A DNA stretch of 64,000 nt, taken from the NCBI GenBank assembly GCA_963665325.3, contig OZ224045.1, positions 928,001 through 992,000 on the forward strand, given 5' to 3'. The position numbers and the translations under genes are program-made. The notes under the pieces were generated by a model. That model saw nothing but the letters and a program-made list of their open reading frames with translations, ran no database searches and was not told where the DNA came from. The DNA is from Alphaproteobacteria bacterium. Lineage in GTDB: Bacteria > Pseudomonadota > Alphaproteobacteria > Bin95. The stretch's first letter is position 1. Each line of letters opens with the position of its first letter. Positions 17,121 through 42,955 of this stretch are shown piece after piece.

Positions 17121-17284
17121 TAATAGAGAAATATTTCAAAAGAATTGTGAACAAACTGCTGTCTTCCGATGGAAGCGCTGAAATGCGCCGTGATGCCCCC
17201 CGCGGCCGCCCGTCAGTCCCGGTAATCCGAAACCGCCTTCGGGTCGAGCCGGTCGGCCGGGACGAGGCGGTAGTGCCGCTCTTC

Positions 17285-17378
17285 CACGACCTTCATCTCG
17301 ACCGCGACTCGCTTCAGAGTGCCAGAGACAAGCGTAGCTGATGACGAGGCCCGGTTCGGGCTCAGGAACCGGCGCCAT
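17285..17378 (-). pseudogene. Truncated PemK-like toxin remnant
   Basis: MAPVPEPEPGLVISYACLW..GRDEGR resembles the N-terminus of an alphaproteobacterial PemK-like family; similarity stops after ~30 codons. Confidence 0.55.
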
Positions 17379-17650
17379 GCCCGCCGGTCAGTTCTTGATC
17401 GTACCGGGCGGCGTCGGGTGGCGGTTCCGCCTGCGCGATCGCTTCGACCTCGGCATCGGATAGCTCCTGGACGGCAAGAGCCTGACGGTCCCGCCGCTTG
17501 AGGCGGTCATATTCCTCGACCGACAAAATCACCAACCGGTCCCTGCCATTGCGGGTAATCGACAAGGAAGCCTTGAGCGCCTCGTCCTGAAAGCGGCCCA
17601 AATATGCATGGAAAATTCGAGCACGACGATATGCGGGACGAATAGTTCAT
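17362..17650 (-). pseudogene. Phd/YefM antitoxin, frameshifted near 5' end
   Basis: GRFQDEAL..ITRNGRDRLVILSVEEYDRLKRRD; the upstream ATG (17650) is in another frame. Confidence 0.7.
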
Positions 17651-17666
17651 GCTCGTAATGCGTTCA

Positions 17667-17836
17667 GGGAAGCGCCGCCGCCCCCGCTTGCTGCAGCGCA
17701 ATCGCCGCCTAATTCCTCTTCCTCCCGCAGCCCTCCCGGAAACCCTGGGCCGCCTTCTTCCTGCCCGTGCTTGCCATGCTGGCGGCGTTCGGGCCGCTTT
17801 CCATCGACATGTACCTGCCGATCCTGCCTGCAACGG
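17667..17836 (+). repeat. Copy 1 of MFS gene upstream region and 5' end
   Basis: Near-identical to 23331-23508, e.g. ccgccttcttcctgcccgtgcttgccatgctggcggcgttcgggccgctttccatcgacatgtacctgccg. Confidence 0.95.
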
Positions 17837-17929
17837 CGTCCCGTCGGTCGCCGCGATATCCCCATTGTCGCTGGGTGAGCCGGCGGAGCGCGCGGGATCG
17901 GTTTCCGCGGCTCACCGGATTCCCCGCGG

Positions 17930-20900
17930 TCACCATCGCGCGGAAAGCGTAAGACCGATGCCGTGCTCCGGCCCGGTATTGTCGTTTGCGTGCTCGCGCC
18001 GGGTGGTCTGGACTTGCAGCGCGAAGGCTGTCGGTCCGTTCCTGACGAGATCCAACCGCGCGCCAAGACTGAAATCCTGCCGGTTGCTCGCGAAGCCCAG
18101 CCTGAGTTCCGGCGTCAGGGTGCAGCAGCCCTCCGCTACTCCGAATCCATAGGTCAACCGGAGCCCGAAAGTGCCATTCGAAAAGTCCTCGCGACCGCCT
18201 TGCGTCGTCAGTCCCGCCAGGGTTTCCCGCCGAAGCAGCGCGTCCATGCCGCCGGTGGCCGAGGCCCCCACGGTCCGGTCGAGCGCGAGCGAAGGCCCGC
18301 GGTCCGAGTCCGGCGCCGGGTCCCAGGCGAGCGAGGCGGAGAGGCCGCGGTCGCGGAAACCGCGCGAGTCGCCGGTCAGCAATCCGCGTCCCTTTACCTC
18401 CGCCGAGAGTCCGCTCTCCGGGTGCGACCAGGCGAGGCCGCCGCCGAGGTCGAGCCCGAGACCCGTCTCGGCGTCGCCGCCGTCATGGCGAACGCCAATC
18501 TCCAGCGTCGGTACCGGGTCGCCGGCGCGCGCGCCGCGCCATGACCCTTCCAGCCCCAGTCGCAGGCGTGTCGCATCCGCCTCCGCTGCCGCAAGCCTGC
18601 CGCCTGGCCCGCGCCCGGCGCCAGTGCTCGTGCGCACCGCCATGGCGTCGGTCGTCATTGCAAGCTCCGGGCCCCCCTCTTCGGGCGCCGCGACGACCGT
18701 GCCGCGCAATCCGAGAGCGCCCATCGCAAGGTCCATGTCCGCTCCGATGGGTGCGGCGGCCTTCGGGGTCAGCGTCAGGCGGCCCGAACCGTAGCCTGCG
18801 ATGCCCCAGACGCTCAGGCGTTCGCTCAACTCATAGCTTCCATAGGGGTAAACGCCGGTCAGCACGGACGAGACCTCCCCGTCGCCATCGGGCGCGCGGT
18901 AATCGCCCTTCCCGCGGGAATGCGCGACGGCAATCCCCGCCAACGCCTGTCCGAACGTCCAGTCCGCGCCGAGAAAGCCTGTCGCTACTTCGCCGTCGAG
19001 ATGGAGATCGCCCTCCCGTCCGCGGATGCGCGACACCGCCCCCTGGCCCCATAACGCGCCCGCGCCGCCGTCCGCGCCGCCGCCAGTAACGGCGAAGGAC
19101 AGACCGGTCAGGAAGGTGCGCTCCGTAAGGGCGCGCGAGGAATGCCGGCTCGCATCCTTGTCGTGAGCGCTAGCGCCTATCCGGTCTGTCCGAGGCCCGA
19201 GGCCGGCTTCCCTCGGGGCTGCGCTGATAAGGCGCTGGCCCGCGACGGTCGCCCGGACACCGGGCAGGCGGGACGCGCGCAGGCGCCCTTCCACCGCATC
19301 GATCGCCTGGTCGGCGACCGTGCGCCCGAAGCGGGAGAGCCAGGCCTGCGGCATGAGGTCGGTGTTCCGGATCGCGCCCGTCGCCTCGCCGTCCTCGATC
19401 CGGGTGCCCGGCGACGGGTTGGAGAGAGTCAGCGTTAGCGTCTCGAACTTCTCGTCGTGGCTGTCGTTCAGCACCGGGACGGCAACCGTCATCTCAGTCG
19501 CGCCTGCAGCGAAGGTGAGCGTGTCGGAGACGTGCGTGTAGTCGGCTCCGGCCGTCGCCGTACCGTCGCTCGTCGCATAGTCGACCGTGACGTCCCGGTC
19601 GAGCGTGCGGGAAAGGGTAACCTTGAAGTCGAGTGTCGCGCCCGTGGCTTCGCGAACTTCCGCATCGGCGACCGAGAAAGAGGCGGGTCCCGGCACGATC
19701 CTGGCGATCCCGTAGGAGAGAGGCGTTCCGCCCGCCGTACAGACCGCGCCGGCCGCTCTGCAATTGGTCCTCCGGGGCAACACCAGCGTCACCGGTTCGT
19801 GCGAAGAAGGCGCCACCCTGACGCTCCAGAGATCCCGGCGACCCTTCACCCGCCAAGCCTTTCTGACGGTTCCACCGGTCACTTGGATGGCCCTGTTCCG
19901 GAGCGCAACGTAACTGGTTGCGATCGGCTCGGTGAAGCGCAGCCTTACGGTGAATGTGCCCTTGCCGGTGTGCGCCTCGGGGACAGACTCCCAGGCGGCC
20001 ATCAGGCCGCCTCTCAGGGACCGCAGGCCGTCGCCGGCCGGGGCTTTGGAGGGTTGCACCACGAGGTTCGAGGCGGTGTTGTCCCGGGTGTAATTGTTGC
20101 CGCCCTCGTCGGTCAGGCCTTCGCCTACGCCCTTCACCGTGTTGGCGCGGAGCCGGATCGTCACCGGCATGCCCAGCGTGGCCGGCGTCGCGCGCACCTT
20201 GTAGGTTCCGCCATTCCAGACTTCGACGGCCGTCACGGTCCCGTTGGTGACATCGAAATCCGTTGGATCGAGGTCCTGCACCGCCTCCGTGGCGACTGCC
20301 CTCACATTCGGGTCGGTGAAATAGAGTTCCATCGCGAACGGACCCGTCACCTCTTCGATGGCGTGCCAGTCTTCCTCGTGGACAGCCTTCGACAGCGTGG
20401 CTTCCAGAACGCTCGAATTCCCGTTTGGCGCCTGCGCCTTCAGTTGCGGCGATACCGCCACCACCGCGTTGCCGAGGCGCATGCGCATCTCGGCCGTGAA
20501 GGCGGTTCCCCTGAACAGTCCGCCCTTGGTGAACTGGATGCAGGCGGTGCCGCCGGTGCATGACGTGTAGCTGTCCCCGCGCCCGACCTCCTTCCAGGGG
20601 CTGAACCGTTCGTCGGACGAGTCCCAGGAATATCTGGCGCGCTCTTCGATCACGACACTGTCTGCCGGAACCTCCACCGGGCGTTCCCAGCAGATATCGA
20701 GCGCCACCTCCCGCCTGTTGCGATCCAGCGATCCAAGCCGGGCCCCGCATTGTCTGATCGTCCCGGTCGGCCCCGGCCCGGATTCGCCGTCATATCCGCG
20801 CGCCGTGAACTTGACCGCGAGTTGGGAGGCGGCCGTGTTGGCTCCTTCCCCGTCCCATATCGCCTCGTTGTCGCTGAGGTGAGTGATCGTTTCGATGCTC

Positions 20901-21496
20901 CAACCGGTCTGACCGCTGCCGTCTTCACTATCGGAATATGTGCCTCGGAGCACGAACGCCTCGTCCGCCGTCGTCGCCGTGCTCTTTACGACGACGGAGT
21001 AGTCGGCATCCGGTTGCAGCACTACCGGGGTCTCTGCTTTGAAGGTCAGCGTACCCGTTCCCCGTGTCGGGTTGGCCAGGGTTGCGAGCGACGTCATGGG
21101 AATGCCCCGGAAATCCGCTTCGTAGATGTAGACGGTCGGAACGATTCCTGCCGGCCATTGTTCGATGCCCAGATCGACCTCGGTCAACAGCCAGGCGGCG
21201 TCGGACGGGCCCGTCACGAAGGAAATGGCAAGTACATAACTCTCCTGAGCCGTGAGTGCGTCCCTGTTTAGCGGCGCGTCGGTCGTCTGCGCCGTGTTGG
21301 ACACGAGCACGATCGGTGTCTGCGCCCACGCAGGCAGTGCTGTGAGGCATGCCCAAAGCACGGCTGCCGCAATTACCGGGAACCGGAGCAGATGGAAGAC
21401 AGCGCCCTGGCCTGCATCGATTGAGGCAACGAAGCCGGCGGTTCTGCCCGTGTTCCGGTCTATGCGGCGAGCGCATCGATGGCGGCGCGCTTGCAT
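17930..21496 (-). CDS. Autotransporter-like outer-membrane adhesin with Calx-beta domain
   Basis: Signal ending PAWAQ; VTVDYATSDGTATAGADY Calx-beta; WLSRFGRTVA linker; beta-barrel ending in LSARW; start codon uncertain. Confidence 0.82.
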   Translation of the reverse strand: MQARRHRCARRIDRNTGRTAGFVASIDAGQGAVFHLLRFPVIAAAVLWACLTALPAWAQTPIVLVSNTAQTTDAPLNRDALTAQESYVLAISFVTGPSDAAWLLTEVDLGIEQWPAGIVPTVYIYEADFRGIPMTSLATLANPTRGTGTLTFKAETPVVLQPDADYSVVVKSTATTADEAFVLRGTYSDSEDGSGQTGWSIETITHLSDNEAIWDGEGANTAASQLAVKFTARGYDGESGPGPTGTIRQCGARLGSLDRNRREVALDICWERPVEVPADSVVIEERARYSWDSSDERFSPWKEVGRGDSYTSCTGGTACIQFTKGGLFRGTAFTAEMRMRLGNAVVAVSPQLKAQAPNGNSSVLEATLSKAVHEEDWHAIEEVTGPFAMELYFTDPNVRAVATEAVQDLDPTDFDVTNGTVTAVEVWNGGTYKVRATPATLGMPVTIRLRANTVKGVGEGLTDEGGNNYTRDNTASNLVVQPSKAPAGDGLRSLRGGLMAAWESVPEAHTGKGTFTVRLRFTEPIATSYVALRNRAIQVTGGTVRKAWRVKGRRDLWSVRVAPSSHEPVTLVLPRRTNCRAAGAVCTAGGTPLSYGIARIVPGPASFSVADAEVREATGATLDFKVTLSRTLDRDVTVDYATSDGTATAGADYTHVSDTLTFAAGATEMTVAVPVLNDSHDEKFETLTLTLSNPSPGTRIEDGEATGAIRNTDLMPQAWLSRFGRTVADQAIDAVEGRLRASRLPGVRATVAGQRLISAAPREAGLGPRTDRIGASAHDKDASRHSSRALTERTFLTGLSFAVTGGGADGGAGALWGQGAVSRIRGREGDLHLDGEVATGFLGADWTFGQALAGIAVAHSRGKGDYRAPDGDGEVSSVLTGVYPYGSYELSERLSVWGIAGYGSGRLTLTPKAAAPIGADMDLAMGALGLRGTVVAAPEEGGPELAMTTDAMAVRTSTGAGRGPGGRLAAAEADATRLRLGLEGSWRGARAGDPVPTLEIGVRHDGGDAETGLGLDLGGGLAWSHPESGLSAEVKGRGLLTGDSRGFRDRGLSASLAWDPAPDSDRGPSLALDRTVGASATGGMDALLRRETLAGLTTQGGREDFSNGTFGLRLTYGFGVAEGCCTLTPELRLGFASNRQDFSLGARLDLVRNGPTAFALQVQTTRREHANDNTGPEHGIGLTLSARW

Positions 21497-21654
21497 GGCT
21501 CGCACTCTCCCCTTGCAAGGGAGCGAACATCCGGCAGGGGGGACCGGACGGCATCGCACGATCTTGCTGTCCCACCGCCCTTTCCTGCTGATTCAGGGCC
21601 GGAGCGCCAGCCGGCGCCGTTCCCACGGGATCGGAGAAATTGCCCGGGTGCCAA

Positions 21655-21895
21655 GCCGGTAGTTCAGTCGCCCAGAGGAATGAATTCGACGCAGGACAAA
21701 CGTGACCGCTCGGCACGCCGGGACGATCGAGCACCGGGTGTCTGAAGCCTGTTATGCCATCGATGCATGCTCTCAATACTGGAAAGCATTATCGCTCCGG
21801 GCGCCTGGCCGGTAGTTCAGTCAGCAGGGGGAATCGATTCGACGCAGGACAATCGTGGCCGCTCGGCACACCGGGACGATCGGGCACCGGGTGTC
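21655..21895. repeat. Two ~88-bp imperfect direct repeats (21655-21742, 21808-21895)
   Basis: gccggtagttcagtc...ttcgacgcaggacaa.cgtg.ccgctcggcac.ccgggacgatcg.gcaccgggtgtc occurs twice with a 153-bp period. Confidence 0.9.
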
Positions 21896-21927
21896 CGGCG
21901 GCGGTACCGCCAGGGACGAGAGGAATC

Positions 21928-22824
21928 ATGGACCGCCTGGGGGAGCATGGGCGCGCGAAATACACGACCGGCACCCGGCTCGGGACCAGCGAGAGCCGGG
22001 GCTGGAAAGGTTTGCTGGCGGAACGCTGGCGCCATTCCGAGGGGGATCTCGGCGAGGTTCGGATCCGGGACACCGAAGTAATCGTGCTTCTGCGGGGCTC
22101 CCTGCATGTCAGGCGTCGGGGCGACGGCCGGCTCCAGCGCTGCGATGCAATTCCCGGCACGGTCTGGCTATGCCCGAGGGGCGTTCACGAAGACATGGTC
22201 CGTCTTTACGGTGAGGTCGAGGAGAGCATCCATCTCTTCCTTCCCGCTGCCCCCCTGTCGCAAACCGTGCTTCGGGAGTTCGACGTCGACCCCGCCAAGG
22301 CCGTGCTGCAGTACAAAGGGGGATTCCACGATCCGCTGATCGAGCGGATCGGGCGCGCCATCCGCAGCGAGCTGGTGGACCCTGCGCCGGGCGGATCGAT
22401 GCTGGCGGAAACCCTGGCCCTGGCGCTCGGCGTCCACATTCTGGGGCGCTATTCCGGTTTGCGGCCGGCATCCCTGCCGCTGCCGGTGGCCCGCGGCGGC
22501 CTCGATCCCCTTCGCCTCAAGCGGGTCGTGGAATTCATCGACGCCCATCTCGGCGAAGGCCTGACCGTCGAGGCGCTCGCGAACGAGGCCTGCCTCAGCC
22601 CGTTTCACTTCGCCCGCGCCTTCAAGGCGGCGACGGGGACGAGCCCGCACCGATATCTCACGGACCGCCGGGTGGACACAGCGAAGTCCCTGATTGCTGA
22701 GGGCCGGCTCCCTCTCGCCGAGATCGCCAATTTGTGCGGGTTTTCCTCCCAGTCCCACTTCACCCGCTGCTTCAAGCGGATCGTCGGCGCCACGCCGGGG
22801 ACCTATCGGGAAAGCTGCCTCTGA
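21928..22824 (+). CDS. AraC-family transcriptional regulator
   Basis: LSPFHFARAFK..TG.SP, CGFSSQSHFTRCFKRIVGATPG. Confidence 0.93.
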   Translation: MDRLGEHGRAKYTTGTRLGTSESRGWKGLLAERWRHSEGDLGEVRIRDTEVIVLLRGSLHVRRRGDGRLQRCDAIPGTVWLCPRGVHEDMVRLYGEVEESIHLFLPAAPLSQTVLREFDVDPAKAVLQYKGGFHDPLIERIGRAIRSELVDPAPGGSMLAETLALALGVHILGRYSGLRPASLPLPVARGGLDPLRLKRVVEFIDAHLGEGLTVEALANEACLSPFHFARAFKAATGTSPHRYLTDRRVDTAKSLIAEGRLPLAEIANLCGFSSQSHFTRCFKRIVGATPGTYRESCL

Positions 22825-22883
22825 CCGGACAGGTCCCCGCGAGAAACTGTCCCGGCCCCACCTTGCTTCCCGCCGACAGCTGG

Positions 22884-23015
22884 CTAATTTCCCTTCCTCC
22901 CGCAGCCCTCTCCGGAAATCCTTGGCCGCCTTCTTCCTGCCCGTGCTTGCCATGCTGGCGGCGTTCGGGCCGCTTTTCATCGACATGTACCTGCCAAGCC
23001 TGCCGGCCATCGGGC
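22884..23015 (+). repeat. Copy 2 of MFS gene 5' end
   Basis: ctaatttccc...ctgccggccatcgggc is nearly identical to 23378-23509. Confidence 0.95.
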
Positions 23016-23048
23016 CCTCATTTCCGCAAACAGCCAACGGAGTTAACC

Positions 23049-23327
23049 ATGGCCGACGCAATTCATCCGGGAGAGCATCTGGCGGAGATTCTCGATGAAC
23101 TCGGAATCAGCCAGTATCGCCTCGCCAAGGCCATCGGCGTCCCGCCGAGGCGCATCAATGAGATTGTGCATGCCCGCAGGGCGGTGACGGCCGATACCGC
23201 CTTGCGTATGGGCAAGGCTCTGGGAATGACGCCCGACTTCTGGCTCAACCTGCAGGCCATGTACGATCTGGACCGCGCCAGAAGCACGCTCAGCGTGGAG
23301 ACAATCGAGACCCTGGTCGCGGCCTGA
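23049..23327 (+). CDS. higA: HigA-family antitoxin (no adjacent toxin)
   Basis: IHPGEHL, RINEIV..RAVTADTALR, FWLNLQAMYDL. Confidence 0.9.
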   Translation: MADAIHPGEHLAEILDELGISQYRLAKAIGVPPRRINEIVHARRAVTADTALRMGKALGMTPDFWLNLQAMYDLDRARSTLSVETIETLVAA

Positions 23328-23415
23328 GCCGGGAAAGCAGTTCGCCGCCGCCAGCCTTGCCGCCGCGCAATCGCCGCCTAATTTCCGTTCCTCCCGCAGC
23401 CCTCTCCGGAAATCC

Positions 23416-24594
23416 TTGGCCGCCTTCTTCCTGCCCGTGCTTGCCATGCTGGCGGCGTTCGGGCCGCTTTCCATCGACATGTACCTGCCGAGCCTGCCGG
23501 CCATCGGGCGCGAGTTCGGGGCCTCGGCCGGCGACGTGCAGCTCACGCTTTCCGCTTTCTTCGTCGGCTTCGGCATCGGGCAGCTTCTCTACGGCCCGCT
23601 CTCGGACCGCTACGGGCGCCGGCCGATGCTGCTGTTCGGCGTGTCGGTCTATCTCGTGGCGAGCGCCGGGGCGGTTTTCGCGCCGGATATCGGGGCGCTG
23701 ACCGCGGCGCGCTTCTTCCAGGCGCTCGGCGGCGGGGCGGCCACGGTGATCGCGCGGGCCTCGGTGCGCGACCGCCATTCGGGCGCGGAGGCCGCACGGA
23801 TGCTCTCCACGCTCATGCTCATCATGGGCGCGGCGCCGCTGCTGGCGCCCTCGCTCGGCGCGCAGGTGCTGCAGTTCGCGGACTGGCGCGCGATCTTCAT
23901 GCTGCTGGCGGGCTGGGGCGGGCTGGCGCTGCTGGCGGTCGTCTTTCTGCTGCCGGAGACGCGCCCGCCGGAGATGCGTTCCCGCGCCGGCCTCGGCTCG
24001 ATCTTCCTCAATTACGGCCGCCTCGTCTCGGAACGGCAGACGCTCGGCTGCGCGCTGGCGAGCGGCGGTGCGTTTGCCGGCATGTTCGCCTATATCTCCG
24101 GCACACCCTTCGTGTTCATGGAGGTGTTCGGCGTCTCGCCCGAGACCTACGGGCTGCTGTTCGCCGTTCATATCGTGGCGATCATGGCCGGCGCCTTCAC
24201 CAATCGCCGGCTGGTCGGGCGCTTCGGGCCCGCCGGCATGATGGCGCGCGGCACCGCCCTGCTGCTGGCGGCGGGCCTCGCCCTCATTCTCGCCGTGCTG
24301 CTGCTGCCGGGAAGCCTCGTCGCCATCGTCGCAGCGCTGCTCTGCTTCATGTTCGCGCTCAACCTCATTGCCGCCAACACCATCGTCATCGCCACGGCCG
24401 ACAAGCCGGAGCTTGCCGGCACCGTCATCGCGCTCATCGGCGCGGGCCATTTCGCGCTCGGCACGATTTCGGGCCTGGCAGTCGGCCAGTTCCACGACGG
24501 CACCGCGCTGCCGCTGGCGCTGACGGTTGCCGCCTGCGGGCTGGTTTCCTTCTCCGCCCATCGCTGGCTCGTGCGGGCGCCGGACGCCGATTGA
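23416..24594 (+). CDS. Bcr/CflA-family multidrug efflux MFS transporter
   Basis: IDMYLPSLP, GPLSDRYGRRP, LPET; about 12 hydrophobic segments. Confidence 0.92.
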   Translation: MAAFFLPVLAMLAAFGPLSIDMYLPSLPAIGREFGASAGDVQLTLSAFFVGFGIGQLLYGPLSDRYGRRPMLLFGVSVYLVASAGAVFAPDIGALTAARFFQALGGGAATVIARASVRDRHSGAEAARMLSTLMLIMGAAPLLAPSLGAQVLQFADWRAIFMLLAGWGGLALLAVVFLLPETRPPEMRSRAGLGSIFLNYGRLVSERQTLGCALASGGAFAGMFAYISGTPFVFMEVFGVSPETYGLLFAVHIVAIMAGAFTNRRLVGRFGPAGMMARGTALLLAAGLALILAVLLLPGSLVAIVAALLCFMFALNLIAANTIVIATADKPELAGTVIALIGAGHFALGTISGLAVGQFHDGTALPLALTVAACGLVSFSAHRWLVRAPDAD

Positions 24595-24671
24595 CACCGG
24601 ACGCCCGGCCCCGGAAGATTCCGGAGTTCGGCCCGGAGCCGGCGCAGCGATGACAAAAGGATACGCCCCCG

Positions 24672-25772
24672 ATGGAGATCGGCTTTTTCAGCATGCCTTC
24701 GCACCCGCCTGAGCGCGACCTGCGCGAGGGCCACGAATGGGACCTCCAGCATATGCGCTGGGCGGACGAACTCGGCTTTACCGAAGGCTGGATCGGCGAG
24801 CATCACACCGCGCCCTGGGAGCCGCATCCCGCGCCCGATTTCCTGGTCATCGAAGGCCTCCGGCAGACGGAGAACATCCGGCTCGGCCCCGGCGGCTTCC
24901 TGCTGCCCTACCACCACCCTGCGGAACTCGCCAACCGGATCGCGATGATGGACCGGCTGAGCCAGGGGCGGCTCAATTTCGGCGTGGCCGCAAGCGGGCT
25001 GCCGAGCGACTGGCAGATGTTCAATGTCGATGGCATGTCCGGCGAGAACCGCGACATGACGCGCGAGGCGCTCGACATCATCCTGCGACTCTGGTCGGAC
25101 GAGCCCGAGTTCGACTACAAGGGCAAGTTCTGGCATGTGACCAAGGGCGCGGAGATGTTCGGCTTCCTGCGCCCGCACCTGTTTCCCCTCCAGAAGCCGC
25201 ACCCGCCCATCGGCGTGGCCGGCCTCTCCAAGAACTCCGACACGCTCAAGCTGGCGGGCGAGCGCGGCTTCCTGCCGATGAGCCTGAACCTGAACCCGGC
25301 CTATGTCGGCAGCCACTGGGATGCGGTCGAGGAAGGCGCGCGCAAGTCCGGGCGCACGCCCAGCCGCAGGGAGTGGCGCATGGTGCGCGAGGTCTTCGTC
25401 GCCGAGACGGACGAGGAAGCCTGGCGGCTCTCGGTCGGCGACATGATGGGCCGGATGATGGGGGACTATTTCCTGCCGCTGCTCGGCAATTTCGGCTTCC
25501 TGGAGTTCCTGAAGCACGACCAGGACGTGCCGGACAGCGACGTGACGCCGGAATATTGCGCGAAGCACAACTGGCTCGTCGGCTCGCCGGCGACCGTCGC
25601 CGAGAAGCTGGAGGCGGTCTATGACGATGTCGGCGGCTTCGGGCAGCTGCTGCTGTTCTGTTTCGACTATGCCGACAAGCCGGAAGCCTGGCACACCTCG
25701 ATGGGGCTGCTGATGAACGAGGTGCTGCCGAAGGTGAGCCACCTCACCCCCGAGGCCGCCGTGGCGGCGTAA
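24672..25772 (+). CDS. LLM-class (luciferase-like) flavin-dependent monooxygenase
   Basis: WIGEHH, LPYHHPAELA, GRLNFG, VGSPATV. Confidence 0.92.
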   Translation: MEIGFFSMPSHPPERDLREGHEWDLQHMRWADELGFTEGWIGEHHTAPWEPHPAPDFLVIEGLRQTENIRLGPGGFLLPYHHPAELANRIAMMDRLSQGRLNFGVAASGLPSDWQMFNVDGMSGENRDMTREALDIILRLWSDEPEFDYKGKFWHVTKGAEMFGFLRPHLFPLQKPHPPIGVAGLSKNSDTLKLAGERGFLPMSLNLNPAYVGSHWDAVEEGARKSGRTPSRREWRMVREVFVAETDEEAWRLSVGDMMGRMMGDYFLPLLGNFGFLEFLKHDQDVPDSDVTPEYCAKHNWLVGSPATVAEKLEAVYDDVGGFGQLLLFCFDYADKPEAWHTSMGLLMNEVLPKVSHLTPEAAVAA

Positions 25773-25872
25773 ACGGCGGTCCTGCCGTCCGGGGCCGGAA
25801 GGGCGGGGCCCCGCCCCGGTTGTCCTGCGCCGCCGGGCGGTCGCCCGGCTCGGTGCGCCAATTTGTCTCGAT

Positions 25873-25941
25873 AATGCGAACCATTCGCATATTGTGCGCT
25901 GTTGTGCTAGCCTCATGCATGCGAATGACTATTAGTCGCAT
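25873..25941. promoter_or_regulatory. Fur-like iron boxes upstream of the Fe3+-binding protein gene
   Basis: Palindrome ATGCGAA-CCA-TTCGCAT (25874-25890) and ATGCGA-N11-TCGCAT (25919-25941). Confidence 0.65.
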
Positions 25942-25961
25942 CGTGACGGGGAGTGGAACCC

Positions 25962-26969: not shown

Positions 26970-27031
26970 GCCGACCGGGAGACCGAGTTCAGGTAACGGC
27001 GGGAAGGACCTCCTCCGTCCCTCCTTGCCGC

Positions 27032-27078
27032 TGCATGGGCGGCGCAACCGCGCAGCGCCGCCCATGCACTCCTTTTCC
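27032..27078 (+). terminator. Hairpin after the Fe-binding protein gene
   Basis: Perfect 14-bp stem TGCATGGGCGGCGC/GCGCCGCCCATGCA followed by CTCCTTTT. Confidence 0.5.
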
Positions 27079-27239
27079 GCCCGCAGTTTTCCGCTCTGGC
27101 GGCCCGGAATCGACCTGGTGTAACATTCGCGGCTGTATCGCAGCCCGCCGGGGGCGTCGGTCGGGGCTCCGGGGGGCCTTGCCGACGGGCTCCGGATACA
27201 GCCCCGCCAATGGAAATGCTCCGAACCGAGGCTCCGGCC

Positions 27240-32548: not shown

Positions 32549-32704
32549 GAAATGCGTTCCCGCCCGATAGCAGCGCTTTGCTAGCATATTGCTTGCGTTT
32601 ATTCAAGATGAGACCGGATCGACGGAAGTTCCGAATGCGCGTCGGCGCGCGGAATGAGTTTTCCGATGGCTACCGGCCCCGGTTCTGACCGGTGATCGTT
32701 GGTA

Positions 32705-33610: not shown

Positions 33611-33696
33611 GACGGGCGCCGTCCCCGGCAGGAGCGAACCGGGGACATGAGGTTGCCGATACCACCGCCTCGGCCTCCGCCTGTCCCCACTCTTTT

Positions 33697-33836
33697 CATC
33701 ACCCCGGCCTCGAGCCGGGGTCCATCCATGGCTCGCAATATCGCCGCAGCCGGTGGAAAGAGGGCGGAACTACCGAGGCTGCAGCGAAAGCCAGGGCTGG
33801 ACCCCGGATCTCCGCTTCGCTCCGTCCGGGGTGACG
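33697..33836. repeat. REP/RPE-like palindromic element
   Basis: TCACCCCGGCCTCGAGCCGGGGTCCA ... TGGACCCCGGA..TCCGGGGTGA: inverted arms, each with an internal hairpin. Confidence 0.7.
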
Positions 33837-33902
33837 GATGGGGACCGGGGCCGGGCCGGCGGTTGTGCCTCGTATGGCGGCGCAACGCGGCGGTTGTCAC
33901 AG

Positions 33903-35543
33903 CTAGAGATCGGTCGCGGGGAAGATGCGGCCGCCCTGCACGGTGCCCCAGACGCGCACATCCTTCAGCCGTTCGCCTCCGACGGTCTCCGGGTCGTCCT
34001 GCAGCACGGCGAAATCGGCGCGCTTGCCGGTCTCGATGGAACCCACCTCGCCGTCGAGGCCGAGCGTGTAGGCAGCGCCCAGGGTGATCGTGCGGAGCGC
34101 GTCGGCGACGCCGATCCGCTCCTGCCCGCCAAGGGTGCGGCCCGACGCGGTTTGCCGGTTGACGGCGCACCAGGCGGTGAAGAGCGGGCCGAGCGGCGTG
34201 ACCGGCGCATCGGAGTGGATCGCGAGCGGCACGCCCTCGCGCAGCGCGGTCGCGCAGGCGTTCATCCGCTCGGCGCGCTCCGGACCCACCGTCACAGCGT
34301 AATGCTGGTCGCCCCAGTAATAGTGGTGGTTCGGGAACAGGTTGACGCACATGCCGAGCGCCCGGATGCGCCGGAACTGCGCCGCGTCGGCAAGCTGGCA
34401 GTGCTGGAGGGTGAAGCGGTGGTCCGGCGCTGGGTGCTTGCGGAGCGCGGATTCCATACAGTCCAGCGCCAGGTCCGTCGCCTCGTCGCCATTGGTGTGG
34501 GTGTGGACCCGAAGGCCGGCGGCGAGCGCGCGCTCGTAGATCTCCAGCAGGTGCTCCGGCGGGATGTACCAGAGGCCCTCCGGCGCGCCGTTATAGTAGC
34601 CGGGCCAGCGCAGCCGGGCCGAGAAGCCCTGGATCGAGCCGTCTGCCACCACCTTGATAGTGCCGAGGCGGAGCCTGTCGCGGCTGCGGCCCCTGAGTTC
34701 CAGCGCCCGGTCGATCAGCTCTTCCGGCGTGAGGCCGTAGAAGCGGCGCAGAGAGACGATGCGCGCCGGGTAGTCCGCCTCGCCTGTCACCCGCAGCATC
34801 ATCTCCACCGCGTCTTCCGGCAGCAGGTTGGCGAGGTCGGCGGCCGTGGTGACGCCGGTGCGCACGCAGAGCTTGGCGAAGCGCCTGAGGCCCGGCTCGT
34901 CGCAGGCCAGCAGGTCGCGGTCGAAGCCGGTGTGGACGCCGAGCGGGGCCATGGCGTCCGGCCCCTTCATCTCGCCGGTCGGCAGACCGTCCGCGCCGAG
35001 CGGGATGCCGGGATGGTTGACGCCCGTCCGCAGCATGCCGGCGAGTTCCAGCGCCTTGGTGTTGACATTGAGGATATGGCCGGAGGCGTTGAGCACGCCC
35101 ACCGCGCGCTCGGTAGAGACCTTGTCGAGGTCGTGCCGGTTCACCCGCCGGCCGCCATAGTAGATCGCATCCAGCGACCAGCCGGCGAGCGGCGCAGCCG
35201 GGTCTTCCAGCGCGTCCGCTGCCTCGCTGAGCCGTTCCACCACGGCGTCGATGGATTTCATGCCGGGCCATACCGTGCCTTCGGGGTCCATGCGGTCGAA
35301 GAAGCCGCAATAGACATAGGCCCAGAGCGAGCCCTCCATGACATGGCTGTGGCCTTCGACCAGGCCCGGCATCAGCACCTTGTCCGCGAAGCGCTCGTCG
35401 AGGCGGTAGTCGCCCCAGCCTGCCAGTTCCTCCAGCGTGCCGGCGCCGAGGATGCGCCCCTCCCGCACCGCCACATGGGTGGCGTGCGGCCGGGCCGGGT
35501 TCATGGTGACGATCTTGCGAGCAGGATAGATGGTGGCGGTCAC
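33903..35543 (-). CDS. Amidohydrolase family 3 (YtcJ-like)
   Basis: PGLVEGHSH, KVVADGS, HTNGD, LQHCQ, HSDAPV, GSIETGKRADF. Confidence 0.92.
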   Translation of the reverse strand: MTATIYPARKIVTMNPARPHATHVAVREGRILGAGTLEELAGWGDYRLDERFADKVLMPGLVEGHSHVMEGSLWAYVYCGFFDRMDPEGTVWPGMKSIDAVVERLSEAADALEDPAAPLAGWSLDAIYYGGRRVNRHDLDKVSTERAVGVLNASGHILNVNTKALELAGMLRTGVNHPGIPLGADGLPTGEMKGPDAMAPLGVHTGFDRDLLACDEPGLRRFAKLCVRTGVTTAADLANLLPEDAVEMMLRVTGEADYPARIVSLRRFYGLTPEELIDRALELRGRSRDRLRLGTIKVVADGSIQGFSARLRWPGYYNGAPEGLWYIPPEHLLEIYERALAAGLRVHTHTNGDEATDLALDCMESALRKHPAPDHRFTLQHCQLADAAQFRRIRALGMCVNLFPNHHYYWGDQHYAVTVGPERAERMNACATALREGVPLAIHSDAPVTPLGPLFTAWCAVNRQTASGRTLGGQERIGVADALRTITLGAAYTLGLDGEVGSIETGKRADFAVLQDDPETVGGERLKDVRVWGTVQGGRIFPATDL

Positions 35544-35580
35544 ACCGCAGGCTCCCTTCGGGCGGGGATTGCCGGGCCGG

Positions 35581-36105
35581 TCAGGCGGCCGCGGTCAGGA
35601 TCGGCAGGGCCTGCTCATAGGCGGCGGCGGCCAGCACCTCGATCTCGTCCGGCCGGCGGCTGCCGATCGGGTGTTCGACCATCACGAAGGGATAGTCGGG
35701 AAGGCCCAGCGTCCGGGCGATGTTCCGCGCCGTCACCTCGAAGGGTTCGGTGCAGATGACGATCGCGCGTTTCCCGAGCTGCTCGAAGCTGATGCCGTCA
35801 TGCAAACTGCACGTCGAACAGGAGCCTCAGTCGCCCAGTCCCGTTATGAGGAAATCGACCTTCTGCGCCGCGGCCTTCAGCGTCTCTTCCGGCGCGGGCG
35901 CGCTGGCGTTGGACTTCGAATAGACCGGCACCACCGTGCAGCCATGCCGGGCCTCGAAGACGGCGGCGGTCTCGCGCAGCATGGAGACGGCGTTGAGCTT
36001 GCCGTTCTCCAGCAGGCCGATGGTCCGGCCCTCCAGCCCGGCGAGCGCCGCTGCCCGACTGTTGTTCCGTTCCGGCCCCGGAACCGTGGGGTCGCAAAGA
36101 AGCAT
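35581..36105 (-). CDS. UGSC-family selenoprotein (174 aa, Sec93)
   Basis: ORFs 36105-35827 and 35805-35581 are in frame and joined by a single TGA in GLGD-U-GSCSTCSLHD. Confidence 0.88.
35795..35817 (-). promoter_or_regulatory. Candidate bacterial SECIS element
   Basis: UCGA-CGUGCA-GUU-UGCAUG-ACGG hairpin with apical G 20 nt after the UGA. Confidence 0.55.
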
Positions 36106-36138
36106 GCCTATCGTCTCCCGTCCGTTGTCAGTTTCAGT

Positions 36139-36171
36139 CTACTCGCAATCGATGCACACGCCGATGGGCTT
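36139..36171. repeat. 33-bp perfect direct repeat of the 3' end of gene 36990-38069
   Basis: ctactcgcaatcgatgcacacgccgatgggctt at both 36139-36171 and 36990-37022. Confidence 0.97.
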
Positions 36172-36189
36172 TCACGGTCTGCCCGATAG

Positions 36190-36621
36190 TCAGCCGCTGC
36201 CGCTCGCATAGTCGGCGAGCGTCATGACCGCCCCGCCGTGAGCGGTCGGTGCAACTGCATTCGCGAAGCGGCGGTCGGCCGTCACGACAGTCGCGCCGAT
36301 ACGATGGGCCAGCGCAAGATACATGAAGTCGTAAACCGGCCTGTCGAGCGCCAGCGCAATCCGGATTGCATCTGCACCGACCGTTTCGTCGGCGTGCCAC
36401 TGCACCGGCATCCGGGGAACCGAAGCCATCATTGCGCCTGCTTCGTCATGCTCGATCTGGCCCCGGCGCGCTTTGCTCCAGAGCGCATTGGCCAGTTCGG
36501 CCGCCATCAGGCGCGGCGCATGCAGGTCATGCCGGCCTGTCGCCAATTCACGCGCGGCTTCGAAATCTTCCTCGGCTACCAGCCATTTGACCGCTACGCT
36601 GGCGTCAACGACCAGCCGCAT
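36190..36621 (-). CDS. vapC: VapC/PIN toxin
   Basis: VVDASVAVKW, ELANAL, VYDFMYLALA, VVTADRRF. Confidence 0.92.
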   Translation of the reverse strand: MRLVVDASVAVKWLVAEEDFEAARELATGRHDLHAPRLMAAELANALWSKARRGQIEHDEAGAMMASVPRMPVQWHADETVGADAIRIALALDRPVYDFMYLALAHRIGATVVTADRRFANAVAPTAHGGAVMTLADYASGSG

Positions 36622-36890
36622 CAGAAGCCGAGATGGGGGCGATGGCCGCGGTCGCGGTCTTCGCGGATCAACTCCTCGGCAGGCGTATGTTCGCGCCCTT
36701 CCGTCAGGCTCCGCAGCCGGTCGGCGATGGCCAGGAAGTCGGCGCGTTTGGCCTCCATGTCGTCGTCCTCGACCGCACATTCCAGGATATGGCGCACCTC
36801 GCCCTCCAGGGACCGGTTGTTGCCCGAAGCGCGATGCTTGAGACGCCGGACCACATCGTCATCGAGCTGCCGCACGTTTATCGTCGCCAT
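36621..36890 (-). CDS. FitA-like ribbon-helix-helix antitoxin
   Basis: MATINVRQLDD..LKHRA..NNRSLEGEVR..IREDRD; TGATG coupling to vapC. Confidence 0.9.
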   Translation of the reverse strand: MATINVRQLDDDVVRRLKHRASGNNRSLEGEVRHILECAVEDDDMEAKRADFLAIADRLRSLTEGREHTPAEELIREDRDRGHRPHLGF

Positions 36891-36909
36891 CTTTCGATCC
36901 TCGACCGAT

Positions 36910-36928
36910 TGCTATCGAATTGATAGCA
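36910..36928. promoter_or_regulatory. FitAB-type autoregulatory operator
   Basis: Inverted repeat TGCTATC-GAATT-GATAGCA just upstream of the antitoxin. Confidence 0.7.
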
Positions 36929-36989
36929 TAACCGGGCGGAAAGAGACAGTCTCCATCGTCCGGTCGGGCAGCCGGCTCGCGCTCCCCGC

Positions 36990-38069
36990 CTACTCGCAAT
37001 CGATGCACACGCCGATGGGCTTCGATTGCATGAGGGAGGCGCGGCCGCGGCTCCAGGAGGGGATGAAGCTGGAATGGCCGCCGGCGTCGCCGCCGCCCAT
37101 GAGGATCATGATGTCGTCCGGGCCGAGGCCGCGGTGGAACTTCCCGTCACCCGCCAGCGGGCGCACGCCCTCCTCCGCATGCTGCTTGCCGTATTCGACA
37201 TCGCGGTGCTTGCCGACAGACTTCATGCCCTCGACGCTGCGCCACGCATGGGCGAACAGGTATTCCTGCGCCTGTCTCCGCGTCCATCCGGCGCCGGAGA
37301 GGATGCGCATATGCTCCGGGGCCATCACCACCACGGACTGGCCGAGCGTGATGCAGCCATAGTTCGCCATCGCGTCGGCGAAGGTGCCCAATATGTGCTC
37401 CGGCGTGTTGCCGCCATGGTTCTCGATGTTGCAGAAGCCGCCGCCGGCGAAGACGGTGACGCTGCTCACGCCTTCCGGATAGCCCTGTTCCTCGCAGAGC
37501 AGCGGCCAGGGATTGCCCCGGCTGCGCTCCGCAATGCAGAAGCCGAATTTGGCCGGCTGGCCCTGGGTCGATTTGTCGGAGATGCCGGGGATCATCCGGA
37601 AGACGTTCATCAGGATGAGGCGCACGGCGCGGCCGATAGTGGCGTTGGCGCGGTTGCCGGGGCCGAACAGGTTCACGTCTGAGTTCATCTGAATGTCGTC
37701 GGTGACGGGGCCGCTGACGACCAGCAACGGCGCCGAGCCGCCGGTGGACGCGGTCGAGCCGTGGAAGTTGAAGCCGGGCTCGTTCATGGCCTCGAAGGCC
37801 GCGACCAGCACCGGGAAATATTCGGGCCGGCAGCCGGCCATGACGGCGTTCACCGCCGCGGCGTGGACGGTGCATTCGAGGCCCGTCGCGGGATGGCGGG
37901 CGATGGGGGTCTCGGGCGGCCGGCCCTCATAGCCGAGCATCTCTTCCACCCGCCCGGGCGCCGGCGGCACGACCGGCAGGCCGTCGGTCCAGCCCTGCTC
38001 GAAGCAATAGTCGATGGCGGCGAGCGGGTCGTCGGCGACCTCGTGCAGGCGTTCGGCATCGTAGGGCAT
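36990..38069 (-). CDS. Conserved partner of UGSC proteins with C-terminal CxxC
   Basis: GWTDGLPVVPP, AVNAVMAGCRPEY, GNRANATIGRA motifs; ends in CIDCE. Confidence 0.75.
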   Translation of the reverse strand: MPYDAERLHEVADDPLAAIDYCFEQGWTDGLPVVPPAPGRVEEMLGYEGRPPETPIARHPATGLECTVHAAAVNAVMAGCRPEYFPVLVAAFEAMNEPGFNFHGSTASTGGSAPLLVVSGPVTDDIQMNSDVNLFGPGNRANATIGRAVRLILMNVFRMIPGISDKSTQGQPAKFGFCIAERSRGNPWPLLCEEQGYPEGVSSVTVFAGGGFCNIENHGGNTPEHILGTFADAMANYGCITLGQSVVVMAPEHMRILSGAGWTRRQAQEYLFAHAWRSVEGMKSVGKHRDVEYGKQHAEEGVRPLAGDGKFHRGLGPDDIMILMGGGDAGGHSSFIPSWSRGRASLMQSKPIGVCIDCE

Positions 38070-41120: not shown

Positions 41121-41984
41121 ATGCCGGACCGACCGCTCGTGCTCGTCACCGAGAAAGACCGCGCCGCCGTCCTGACGCTCAACCGGCCGGAGAAGAAGAA
41201 CGCGATGAACGACGCGCTGCTGGCGGCGTTCATCGCCGCGGTCCGCAGCGCCAATGCGGATGACGGGGTGCGCGCCATCGTCGTCAGGGGCGCAGGCGAC
41301 TGCTTTACCTCGGGGCGCGATGCTTCCGAGTTCGAGCAGGCGGCCGTTCTGCAGGACATGTCGGTGGATGCGGCGGTGGACATCTTCCTGGAGGCGCTCT
41401 CGCTGCTGATCGAATCGCCGAAACCGACGATCGCCGCCGTGCATGGCATGGCGCTCGGCGGCGGGCAGGCGATGTCGCTTGCCTGCGATTTCGTCGTGGC
41501 GGAGCGGGACGCGCGGTTCGGCAATGTGGAGATGGCCTACGGCTTCCCGGCAGCCATGAACATCGCGCTGTTGACCCGCCAGATCGGCCGGCGCCGGGGG
41601 CTGGAGATCGCCATGACGGGCGACCTCTACACCGCCGAGCAGTATCGGGAGTTCGGCCTGGTCAACCGGCTGGCGGAGCCCGGCGGGCTGGACGAGGCGG
41701 TGGCGGCCTTCGTCGGCACGCTGACCGACCTAGCGCCCTGGGCGGTCCGGCGCACCAAGACGACCTATCGCCTCGCCGAGGACATGGCGCTGCACGGCGC
41801 GCTCAACTTCGGCAACCAGCTGAACCAGCTCTTGCGCCTGAACGGCCAGCTCGCGCCGATCCACAGCCGCAGCGAGGGGGTGAAACGGGCGCTCAAGACG
41901 GATATCGCGGACAGGGAGGCGGCGGAGGGGGGTAAGCCGCCGCAGGAAAGAGGCCGCCCGGCGCCGGGCCCGTTCAGGCGATGA
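41121..41984 (+). CDS. Enoyl-CoA hydratase/isomerase family
   Basis: [31 protein letters not shown]. Confidence 0.9.
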   Translation: MPDRPLVLVTEKDRAAVLTLNRPEKKNAMNDALLAAFIAAVRSANADDGVRAIVVRGAGDCFTSGRDASEFEQAAVLQDMSVDAAVDIFLEALSLLIESPKPTIAAVHGMALGGGQAMSLACDFVVAERDARFGNVEMAYGFPAAMNIALLTRQIGRRRGLEIAMTGDLYTAEQYREFGLVNRLAEPGGLDEAVAAFVGTLTDLAPWAVRRTKTTYRLAEDMALHGALNFGNQLNQLLRLNGQLAPIHSRSEGVKRALKTDIADREAAEGGKPPQERGRPAPGPFRR

Positions 41985-42375
41985 CGGCTACACCTTCGGC
42001 GGAGGCCGCGCGGGCAAGGGCGCGGTCGAGCGTCGCAAGGCTGTCGCCCCGGCGCAGCGCCGTCTCCAGATAGGCAGCGTCGTAGGCGGACAGGCGGCGA
42101 TTGCACGCGAGCGCGAAGACCGTGTCCTCGTCATGAGAATCGTCCTGCGCCAGTTGCAGGTTCCGCAAACGTGTCAGGAACCGCGCGCTTTGGGTGCGGT
42201 CGATACGGCCGCGGCGTTCGTTCACAATCAGGATATTGCGGATTTCATGCCGGAAGAGTCCGGGAACGACGCCTCCGGTTTGCGGCAGGATATCCAGAAC
42301 GTGCTCGGCCGCCTGCGCCTGCTCATCGGGAAAGCACCACGCCGCCGCGATGGAGGCGTCGATAACGACAGCCAT
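41974..42375 (-). CDS. vapC: VapC/PIN toxin
   Basis: VIDASIAAAW, EIRN, LSAYDAAYLE, LATLD. Confidence 0.9.
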   Translation of the reverse strand: MAVVIDASIAAAWCFPDEQAQAAEHVLDILPQTGGVVPGLFRHEIRNILIVNERRGRIDRTQSARFLTRLRNLQLAQDDSHDEDTVFALACNRRLSAYDAAYLETALRRGDSLATLDRALARAASAEGVAVIA

Positions 42376-42608
42376 CAGGCGCGGCCCTCGTCCCTGGCGG
42401 CGCGAATCTCCGCGGCAGAGACGGAGGGGCGTTCCTTTCGCTCCTGCCTCAAGAGTTCGACGGTGCGGGCGACCGGTTCCCGTATCGGCACGATGCGGGC
42501 GGCCGGCACGCCGTTGCGCGCGATGACGACATCCCGGCCTTCCTCGGCCTGGGCGATCAGATGCGACAACCGCGTCTTGGCATCGCCGATATTGAAGGTG
42601 GGAGGCAT
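42375..42608 (-). CDS. Phd/YefM antitoxin
   Basis: IGDAKTRLSHLI..AEEG.DVVIARNGVPAARIVP. Confidence 0.9.
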   Translation of the reverse strand: MPPTFNIGDAKTRLSHLIAQAEEGRDVVIARNGVPAARIVPIREPVARTVELLRQERKERPSVSAAEIRAARDEGRA

Positions 42609-42664
42609 GGACCCGGTTCCTGTCTGCGTGTCCGTATCCGCCCACAGATATCCACCGTTACAGA

Positions 42665-42685
42665 CTTGGTCAAGGCTTGGTCAAG
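42665..42685. promoter_or_regulatory. Tandem near-palindromic operator upstream of phd
   Basis: CTTGGTCAAG-G-CTTGGTCAAG. Confidence 0.55.
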
Positions 42686-42689
42686 CGGG

Positions 42690-42824
42690 TTGGCGGAGCC
42701 CATGGCGGTGCATGGCGCGCTCAACTTGGGCAACCGTCTGAACCGGCTTCTGCGTCCGAACGGCCCGCATGCGCCCATCCACAGCCGCAGCGACGGGGTC
42801 AGGCAGGCACTCAGGACGGATATG
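42690..42824 (+). repeat. Diverged copy of the enoyl-CoA hydratase 3' region (41772-41906)
   Basis: LAEPMAVHGALNLGNRLNRLLRPNGPHAPIHSRSDGVRQALRTDM vs LAEDMALHGALNFGNQLNQLLRLNGQLAPIHSRSEGVKRALKTDI. Confidence 0.92.
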
Positions 42825-42955
42825 GAGGAAGGGGAACCCGGCCAGCCGGATCGGAGAGCCGCCGCCCCGGGGTCGGGGCGGCGGCAGTCGAAAGGAGCTC
42901 TCAGGGAGCCTTGTGCGGCCCGCGGAGGCGAGCCTTTTCCGCTATCCGGGCGGGG

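Follow-up and report, generated by a model that had tools for sequence, protein, structure and literature searches.

Integrase-free cassettes bracketed by duplicated gene ends in an alphaproteobacterial genome: scars of the long-target-duplication kind with other cargo

Introduction

How do small gene cassettes that carry no integrase or transposase come to lie within core operons, each bracketed by two copies of the end of a resident gene that itself stays whole? This question is raised by a 64,000-nt stretch of an Alphaproteobacteria bacterium genome (G000:C1:928001-992000, here called the window), where toxin-antitoxin (TA) modules and an adhesin-AraC block stand between direct repeats at the 5' end of a major facilitator superfamily (MFS) gene, at the 3' end of the gene next to a UGSC-family gene (the UGSC partner) and at the 3' end of an enoyl-CoA hydratase (ECH) gene. 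The rest of the window consists of core genes, including tuf, secE, nusG, rplKAJ and rpoB. We report that all of these loci are true insertions and not assembly artefacts, and that they are the same kind of scar as the one already published for restriction-modification (RM) genes under the name "insertion with long target duplication", with other cargo and with arrays; the kind is known and its mechanism is unsolved. The original prediction for this DNA, made from its letters alone, had proposed a general gene-accretion mechanism that scatters TA modules through core operons; its observation is confirmed, and the type of scar is not new.

The genome, G000, is a 5.58-Mb assembly in five contigs with a G+C content of 0.671 (~67%), and was compared with 16 other species of the genus, one genome per species (G001-G016). 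Repeats were detected by BLASTN of the window against itself and by a direct-repeat search, cargo and host genes were assigned by Pfam, and gene calls came from our own open reading frame (ORF) filter combined with a filter on third-position G+C.

Results

The repeats of the original prediction (five, at three loci) were all found in the places that it had given, by self-BLASTN and the direct-repeat search, with self-comparison E-values between 2e-9 and 8e-59. Each is unique, being overlapped in a self-BLAST of the genome solely by its self-match and its partner copies (two to three matches), and none of the four tRNA genes of the window is located at any of them. The host genes are intact, as had been proposed: the MFS_1 match covers 2-345 of 347 profile positions and the ECH_1 match 6-221 of 251, and the 359-aa UGSC partner is conserved in the genus. 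The cargo was likewise found free of mobility genes, with no match to the integrase, transposase and resolvase families Phage_integrase, Resolvase and rve in the window ORFs scanned by Pfam (42 + 7 + 32 ORFs). Single-copy, cassette-free sites, which the original prediction had suggested looking for in relatives, exist within the genus, and because these empty sites are kept there the loci are true insertions; moreover, the repeat-cargo-repeat structures recur in independent assemblies of four to six species, which rules against an artefact of assembly. Contigs from four public short-read runs, aligned to window positions 17100-37099, break at the repeats and in all four contain the adhesin block; no contig joint falls on a repeat boundary, and these contigs are uninformative on excision, circles or cassette-free strains.

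The simplest case is the UGSC-partner locus (35581-38069, minus strand throughout). The true 3' end of the 359-aa gene (36990-38069) supplies the gene-attached copy (36990-37022), and the displaced copy (36139-36171), which consists of the last 33 nt of that gene including the stop, lies 33 nt upstream of the UGSC gene. The 33-mers are a perfect pair, the second starting exactly at the TAG stop, and they enclose 818 bp (36172-36989) with a VapBC cassette made of vapC (PIN, 36190-36621) and vapB (FitA-like RHH, 36621-36890), upstream of which is a palindromic operator-like sequence; by its families the pair (36190-36890) is a predicted type II TA module. In 6/16 relatives (G012, G015, G005, G003, G001, G014) the site is empty and the flanks meet on a single 33-mer, six others (G011, G009, G006, G013, G002, G010) have the cassette with both copies, the site is altered or eroded in G016, G007 and G008, and G004 gave weak matches only. 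The empty state looks ancestral, since in at least one other genus of the same family (G023) the flank matches also overlap without a cassette. At the junction, the only one examined closely, the microhomology is 2 nt. The cassette is 97% identical to that of G009, compared with 88-93% for the flanks.

A perfect repeat might be taken for a young one, and the original prediction had indeed read differing repeat divergence as events of different ages. The perfect 33-mer, however, flanks an insertion that is present in G000 and in six other species, and in the five occupied relatives that were read the G000 33-mer is matched with 2-5 differences by the non-coding copy and with 1-2 by the coding copy. 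That the pair is perfect in G000 does not therefore mean that it is young. Repeat identity was therefore rejected as a clock on the grounds of this old insertion, of variants shared within genomes at the MFS locus and of the ECH allele types, both described below; the insertions at these loci appear to be old.

At the ECH locus (41775-42900), the gene-attached copy A (41775-41984, plus strand) can be aligned to the displaced copy B (42693-42900, plus strand) over 41775-41917, where the two (41775-41917 and 42693-42835) are 80.4% identical over 143 nt. Between the repeats are 775 bp that hold a Phd-VapC cassette (41985-42692, minus strand) plus a conserved 42-nt spacer; the VapC PIN toxin gene (~41974-42378, minus) overlaps the ECH stop and is paired with the Phd antitoxin gene (PhdYeFM, 42375-42608, minus), the pair (41974-42608) again having the families of a type II TA module. 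The site is empty in G010, G004 and G016, is occupied with both copies in G011, G015 and G008 and, with an eroded cassette, in G007, and has the cassette in G013, where copy B was not found. Cassette identities to G011, G015, G008 and G013 (98.0, 94.4, 94.8 and 93.5%) exceed those of the gene body (93.7, 89.0, 91.1 and 88.8%). The copies A and B of G000 belong to different allele types at the 3' extremity. Copy B is 75-91% identical to copy B of other species, and copies A and B within a genome are 82-93% identical; the displaced copies decay fast and independently. The 5' part of copy B is shorter in G000 than in G007, G008 and G015, and we considered whether the differing left ends (~225, 170 and 143 nt) record independent events; this was rejected, as the alignment gives one common junction with later internal deletions. 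Separately, the closest relative, G011, has on another replicon (C1:661630-662578) a second copy, at 87%, of the right half of the ECH cassette, which takes in the spacer and the displaced end of ECH and continues into downstream DNA.

The MFS locus (16783-24594) carries three copies of a gene 5' end and two nested inserts. The outermost copy c1 (17673-17831, plus strand) retains the ancestral upstream context, c2 lies at 22884-23015 (plus), and c3 (23343-23509, plus) comprises the upstream region and first 31 codons of the intact MFS gene (23416-24594); c2 and c3 are 97.7% identical over 132 nt, c1 and c3 91.9% over 160, and c1 and c2 92.7% over 124. Between c1 and c2 are 5052 bp (17832-22883) with the adhesin-AraC block, a 1209-aa Calx-beta adhesin (17930-21559, minus) and a divergent AraC regulator (21754-22824, plus), both assigned by Pfam. 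Among the 17 genus genomes searched this block occurs in G000 only, nested inside the older upstream MFS copy, and no donor locus was found, the only relative elsewhere in G000 being an 80% AraC paralogue. The intergenic region of the block has a 99-nt direct repeat of its own (21644-21742 and 21797-21895, 86% identical, 153 nt apart).

Between c2 and c3 the insert is 362 bp and its cargo (23016-23342, plus) is a HigA/Xre gene (23043-23327, Pfam HTH_3, E 9e-11), which stands alone in G000 and has a putative HigB-like toxin partner in G016. In G013 and G016 an upstream copy is followed by ~365 bp, the xre gene and the MFS copy, and in G016 these ~365 bp encode the HigB-like toxin (L043:7045-7359, E 3e-17), because of which we take the cassette to have been higBA originally, its toxin lost in G000. 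A single MFS copy without the xre cassette is found in G007, G012 and G005, and likewise in G008 except for a 49-nt remnant of a second copy. Within a genome, the upstream and gene-attached copies carry the same species-specific variants, an indication of gene conversion between them, and the two nested events have different boundaries inside the same 167 bp.

Upstream of c1 lie a Phd-family antitoxin gene (17362-17601, minus; PhdYeFM_antitox, E 1.2e-8) and an 80-aa partner ORF without a Pfam match (17136-17378, minus). The original prediction had counted this Phd/toxin pair (17136-17601) among the cargo. That part does not stand, because in G007 the pair and a spacer lie directly upstream of a single-copy MFS 5' end, which makes the pair an old neighbour of the MFS gene; the TA modules between the repeats and the adhesin-AraC block are bracketed as described. 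A dispersed repeat resembling a miniature inverted-repeat transposable element (MITE-like, ~16783-17135, core ~16882-17004, strand undefined) adjoins the pair, outside the duplications and marking the same islet, with 73 further G000 matches to window 16700-17200 and many matches in every species of the genus. Another MITE-like copy, at C1:860357-860485, adjoins an asparaginase islet.

Beyond the window, a self-BLAST of the whole genome gave 115 short-range direct-repeat matches, in 41 of which the repeat sequence occurs nowhere outside its own pair or triple. We annotated 25 loci outside the window (ORF filter and Pfam), leaving out apparent tandem-paralogue pairs, and classed 17 inserts genome-wide, the four window events included, as integrase-less and bracketed by a duplicated gene terminus, which bears out the predicted recurrence. 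The remaining loci are an integrase island, IS-related, integrase-fragment or resolvase-paralogue loci, a transporter cluster and unclassified cases. Over the 17 inserts the duplication length ranges from 33 to 345 bp (33-38 bp at four loci), the insert size from 0.36 to 5.05 kb and the cargo G+C from 0.43 to 0.69, against 0.671 for the genome, with six inserts at or below 0.58. Pfam recognised no integrase or transposase among the cargo ORFs of the 17. TA cargo comprises VapBC, Phd-VapC, the orphan HigA, a second HigBA and MazEF; the others carry two AAA_14-DUF4143 ATPases, two Calx-beta adhesins, a HATPase_c_3/HSDR_N protein, a PIN_12 protein, a GIY-YIG protein, an endonuclease/exonuclease/phosphatase protein and a pair of SIS and D-Ala-D-Ala-ligase-like proteins, and three inserts had no family match.

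A specific genome-wide link between bracketing repeats and TA loci, as the original prediction had it, did not emerge. We asked how many of 24 PIN and 2 ParE loci are flanked by a direct repeat of at least 40 bits, and found 3/26 (two window cases and one resolvase-paralogue pair) against 21/600 random genome positions with any such repeat (Fisher's test, p = 0.07, or p = 0.25 excluding the resolvase case). Among nine paralogues of the two TA cassettes of the window, located in G000 and in five relatives, 0/9 were bracketed, all scoring below 32 bits and within background. TA and defence-type genes are abundant among the bracketed inserts, yet most TA loci are unbracketed and the cargo is mixed.

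Neither did the inserts reveal ends in common. BLAST of cargo against cargo and of cargo against the genome gave homology in coding parts only and no common terminal sequences, and the shared breakpoint motif that had been suggested was not seen by eye at 16 junction pairs, no formal motif finder being used. In the ten events at gene 3' ends, the cargo junction lies 0, 0, 1, 1, 5, 8, 16, 17, 20 and 122 nt past the host stop. These ten events include window position 36990 and C1:1175158, 2386089 and 1591653, and their junctions lie far nearer the stop than randomly chosen intergenic sites would.

Three loci outside the window were compared with the relatives. At an aldehyde-dehydrogenase/hydrolase junction, G000 alone has an insert of G+C 0.50 with a 96-bp duplication; its cargo is present in 0/16 relatives and the site is a clean single copy in seven of them. 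Compared with the single target of five relatives, the displaced copy agrees at 86-90 of 95-96 positions and the attached copy at 88-91 of 94-95. The flanking genes agree to about the same degree, and both copies look native. G011 has a 4.4-kb insert at the same junction, which we tried to identify with the 4384-bp transposon described below; this was rejected, and there is no long duplication either. The second locus, at the 3' end of one gene (C1:2385027-2388900), is a hot spot with four states across the genus: it is empty in G015 and G009, has ParDE only in G012 and G016, has only an AAA_14-DUF4143 ATPase cassette, with no duplication, in six further species, and in G000 has the ATPase, a 345-bp gene-end copy with an internal deletion and then ParDE. 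In G011 the intact gene and the displaced copy of this locus are on different replicons. Tandem accretion is thus seen at two loci, the MFS 5' end and C1:2385027. A possible third array (C1:2539814-2544969, next to an M24 peptidase gene) has 43- and 99-nt repeat pairs with a common middle copy, and brackets MazEF and other ORFs (2458 bp) and a 918-bp insert with 43% G+C. The asparaginase site, the third locus, is empty in G011, whose neighbour gene is 98.75% identical, and occupied with repeat remnants in G005 (95%); presence and absence there do not follow relatedness.

Discussion

The name "insertion with long target duplication" was reportedly coined by Nobusato et al. in 2000 (Gene 259:99), for restriction-modification genes. 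It has since stood for an unexplained route of gene gain that was tied to RM genes and their DNA cutting. In the comparison described by Furuta, Abe & Kobayashi 2010 (PMC2853133), RM units that carry no mobility genes are flanked by direct repeats of unique sequence and variable length, which pass a threshold of >30 bp, measure 45 to ~420 bp, occur as one copy in the empty-site genome and in some cases overlap the 3' end of a gene. The window repeats (33, 132, 124 and 143 nt) all exceed that threshold. Four of the five features that define the class there are present here (a repeat >30 bp, an empty site, no mobility gene at <20 kb, a unique repeat), and the fifth, R and M cargo, is replaced by VapBC, Phd-VapC, HigA, adhesin-AraC and others; the signature of the aldehyde-dehydrogenase insert equals that in Table 2 of the same paper. 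The likeness thus extends to unique repeats that vary from site to site, gene 3' ends, addictive or defence cargo, an insert free of mobility genes and a mechanism that is unsolved. What differs is the cargo, with TA modules, single nuclease- or ATPase-type genes and adhesins in place of R and M genes, and this genus additionally has tandem cassette arrays separated by gene-end copies, and interspecies exchange of cassettes. In the parts of Mruk & Kobayashi 2014 (PMC3874152) that treat it, long target duplication is discussed for RM systems only, and the corresponding part of a TA review likewise cites it for RM only. Among the papers listed as using the phrase "long target duplication" we found no title on TA systems, and a report in other journals is possible; a ParDE-like module between identical 152-bp direct repeats has been published from Microcystis, without that interpretation.

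What has to be explained, then, are insertions with single-copy empty sites, mixed cargo, no common ends or motifs and mosaic identities. We lean towards reading the inserts as scars of recombinase-independent insertion at gene termini, of the long-target-duplication class. A foreign segment of ~0.4-5 kb would be joined illegitimately into the end of a resident gene, and 33 to ~345 bp of target would be duplicated at the joining, one copy keeping the gene whole and the other being displaced beyond the insert, still joined to its native downstream sequence. The first join would be a break-repair or template-switch event, and recombination of the RecA type would do the remainder. The direct repeats and conserved flanks would then be substrates for ordinary homologous recombination, which could homogenise or erode the copies, delete an insert precisely, move cassettes between related species at the same locus, and add a second cassette next to an existing one, so that arrays with gene-end copies between the cassettes build up. 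The types of cargo would reflect which foreign DNA survives selection and not mobility encoded by the cargo. Traces of homologous recombination appear to be visible in the cassettes that are closer between species than their flanks, the variants shared within genomes, the independent decay of copies and the asparaginase pattern, and cassettes probably move between species in this way.

Several observations weigh against recombinase-independent insertion with self-duplication as just described. The first join is unobserved, and the sequence offers no readable signature of breakage or repair. The gene-attached copies at the ECH locus all have one C-terminal tail, the native type of the empty G010 and G004, and the displaced copies have lineage-specific tails; this allele pattern would fit a gene end imported with the cassette better than self-duplication. 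The ATPase cassette at C1:2385027 stands without a duplication in six species and is accompanied by one only in G000, from which it follows that the duplication need not arise at first insertion. The MFS 5' end, C1:2385027 and the aldehyde-dehydrogenase junction have each received at least two independent insertions in one region of a few hundred bases, repeated hits that random breaks do not predict, and it is unexplained that 4/10 of the 3'-end events start the cargo no more than 1 nt from the stop (9/10 no more than 20 nt).

Some of these points are what one would expect if homology-anchored additive integration were the sole generator, with DNA from a related strain arriving with the gene end already beside the cassette, and the resident end being pushed downstream. 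Such DNA could enter in linear form, through homology-facilitated illegitimate recombination, or as a circularised fragment, through a single Campbell-type crossover. We regard additive integration as possible and, as the only source of the inserts, rather improbable. The ECH junction between gene and cassette is constant across all occupied genomes, and the displaced copies keep lineage-specific native tails and terminators; copy B of G000 aligns in the same order with the empty G016 through the native tail, the terminator hairpin and the DNA downstream, and has a clustered 5-nt variant in common with it. Copy A has the tail of the G010 and G004 type. At C1:2385027, G000 has the ATPase-only allele of six species joined to the ParDE-only allele of G012 and G016 through the 345-bp copy, and cassettes are more alike between species than their flanks. 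The ECH and C1:2385027 allele patterns are compatible with homology-facilitated illegitimate recombination, a class defined by transfer experiments and judged here from sequence. Against additive integration stands the aldehyde-dehydrogenase insert, whose cargo is low in G+C and absent from the relatives and whose 96-bp copies both look native. Five further inserts have a G+C of 0.43-0.58; the six low-G+C inserts fit distant donors, which could not carry the host's own gene end. The 33-38 bp duplications at four loci are, moreover, very short for a Campbell crossover, and the first placement of a cassette beside a gene is left unexplained. The aldehyde-dehydrogenase insert thus argues for a duplication made from recipient DNA, the ECH tails and the G000 allele at C1:2385027 for an imported gene end, and because the evidence pulls both ways we prefer the two-step view of an illegitimate first insertion followed by homologous recombination.

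A similar logic of additive integration has been proposed for the orphan arrays at Rhs, contact-dependent inhibition (CDI) and type VI secretion system (T6SS) effector-immunity loci, for which Kirchberger et al. 2017 (PMC5361080), in the part of that paper concerned, describe C-terminal displacement and propose homology-facilitated illegitimate recombination. As far as that account goes, the likeness is considerable: modules are added beside a conserved gene without an integrase, the old 3' part is pushed downstream, serial arrays build up, and one homologous anchor is combined with one illegitimate join. Those arrays, however, are made of functionally distinct toxin tips with immunity genes, whereas in the present inserts what is displaced duplicates the host gene's own end and has no function, and the cargo is unrelated to the host gene.

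A bolder possibility, which we entertain tentatively and consider unlikely, is that the duplicated gene end is itself a mobility device. A cassette with its host gene's terminus copied on either side would be a recombinase-free unit, reliant on host recombination alone, that could loop out, re-enter the same gene in any related genome through its 30-350 bp and stack in the manner of an integron, with addiction modules biasing the outcome. If this were true, replacing a resident TA allele would kill the recombinant, and only additive, gene-end-duplicating integrations would survive. This would explain the arrays beside TA modules (HigBA at the MFS gene, ParDE at C1:2385027), and why cassettes are more alike between species than the surrounding genes.

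Integrase islands and their integrase-less, cis-mobilisable derivatives duplicate a gene end on both sides, leave the host gene intact and accrete in tandem at one att site. A site-specific recombinase acting in trans on cassettes that are integrase-less derivatives of this kind, with att sites overlapping gene ends as in cis-mobilisable or tRNA-type islands, would therefore produce a comparable picture. G000 does have a classical island with an integrase between perfect 45-bp repeats (C1:2162098/2168659), and there is an integrase gene 0.5 kb away from one HigBA insert. We nevertheless hold this explanation to be very unlikely: unlike such islands, the inserts have no common att core, and no recombinase family was recognised in the window ORFs scanned; each of the 17 sites has a repeat sequence of its own, no motif common to them being seen by eye, the tenfold range of repeat length and the differing boundaries of the nested MFS events within 167 bp argue against a dedicated recombinase, and the cargos have no ends in common. 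Of the three mechanisms in the original prediction, the trans-acting recombinase is thus disfavoured, and the recombination-based routes, single crossover of small circles carrying a gene end and homology-facilitated illegitimate recombination, remain candidates. For integron gene cassettes, which are defined by attC sites and an IntI integrase with attI, the comparison covered the integrase and the cassette ends: no integrase was recognised in the window ORFs scanned, and no ends in common were seen.

More improbable still is an unrecognised transposase that makes unusually long and variable target-site duplications. The part of Furuta 2010 (PMC2853133) that deals with such elements mentions a Mycoplasma IS with long variable duplications, and G000 is rich in active transposons. 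The duplications here, however, vary over 33-345 bp, not as expected of a DDE transposon, and the cargos have neither terminal inverted repeats nor ends in common, nor is there a transposase inside the inserts. An abundant element of the genome, a 4.4-kb transposon, apparently makes ~4-5-bp duplications and not long ones. This element (4384 bp) has 24 full-length copies in G000, including C1:1628090-1632473, with TGAG..CTCA ends, and encodes an rve-type transposase (491 aa), an AAA_25 ATPase with a wHTH (670 aa) and a small HTH protein; eight copies inspected are 99.98-100% identical, which suggests very recent activity.

That the repeats are assembly artefacts or chance similarity can be practically dismissed: short-read contigs of related public runs do break at them, but the UGSC structure is found in six other species, the ECH structure in G011, G015, G008 and G007 and the MFS-xre structure in G013 and G016, and BLAST E-values of this order do not suggest chance.

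As the same scar is found here with TA, nuclease- or ATPase-type and adhesin cargo, the mechanism cannot depend on a restriction enzyme encoded by the cargo. The property common to RM units that Furuta 2010 (PMC2853133) suspected where it considers the cause, e.g. DNA breakage, cannot then be general as a driver in the form of breakage by restriction enzymes. Across the genomes of this genus the same sites are seen empty, occupied, eroded or stacked, and together with the G000-only insert with native-looking copies this makes it a testable question whether the duplicate comes from the recipient or is imported with the cassette, and whether the spread, stacking and deletion of cassettes are then the work of host recombination. 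For annotation, repeats of this kind are a cheap marker of small integrase-less defence or addiction islets inside core operons.

Additional features of the window

A second VapC/RHH pair (31881-32587, minus strand) lies between convergent genes; no flanking repeat was detected there, and it resembles the UGSC cassette in two 45-47-nt patches only (72-84%). The UGSC-family gene itself (35581-36105, minus) appears under translation table 11 as two ORFs with an in-frame TGA at 35827-35829; with the TGA read as selenocysteine, it would encode one putative protein of 174 aa, in which the motif D-U-G-S-C stands at residue 93. A gene for a Pyr_redox_2-AIRS fusion, selenophosphate-synthetase-like, lies 14 kb from it (49950-52112).

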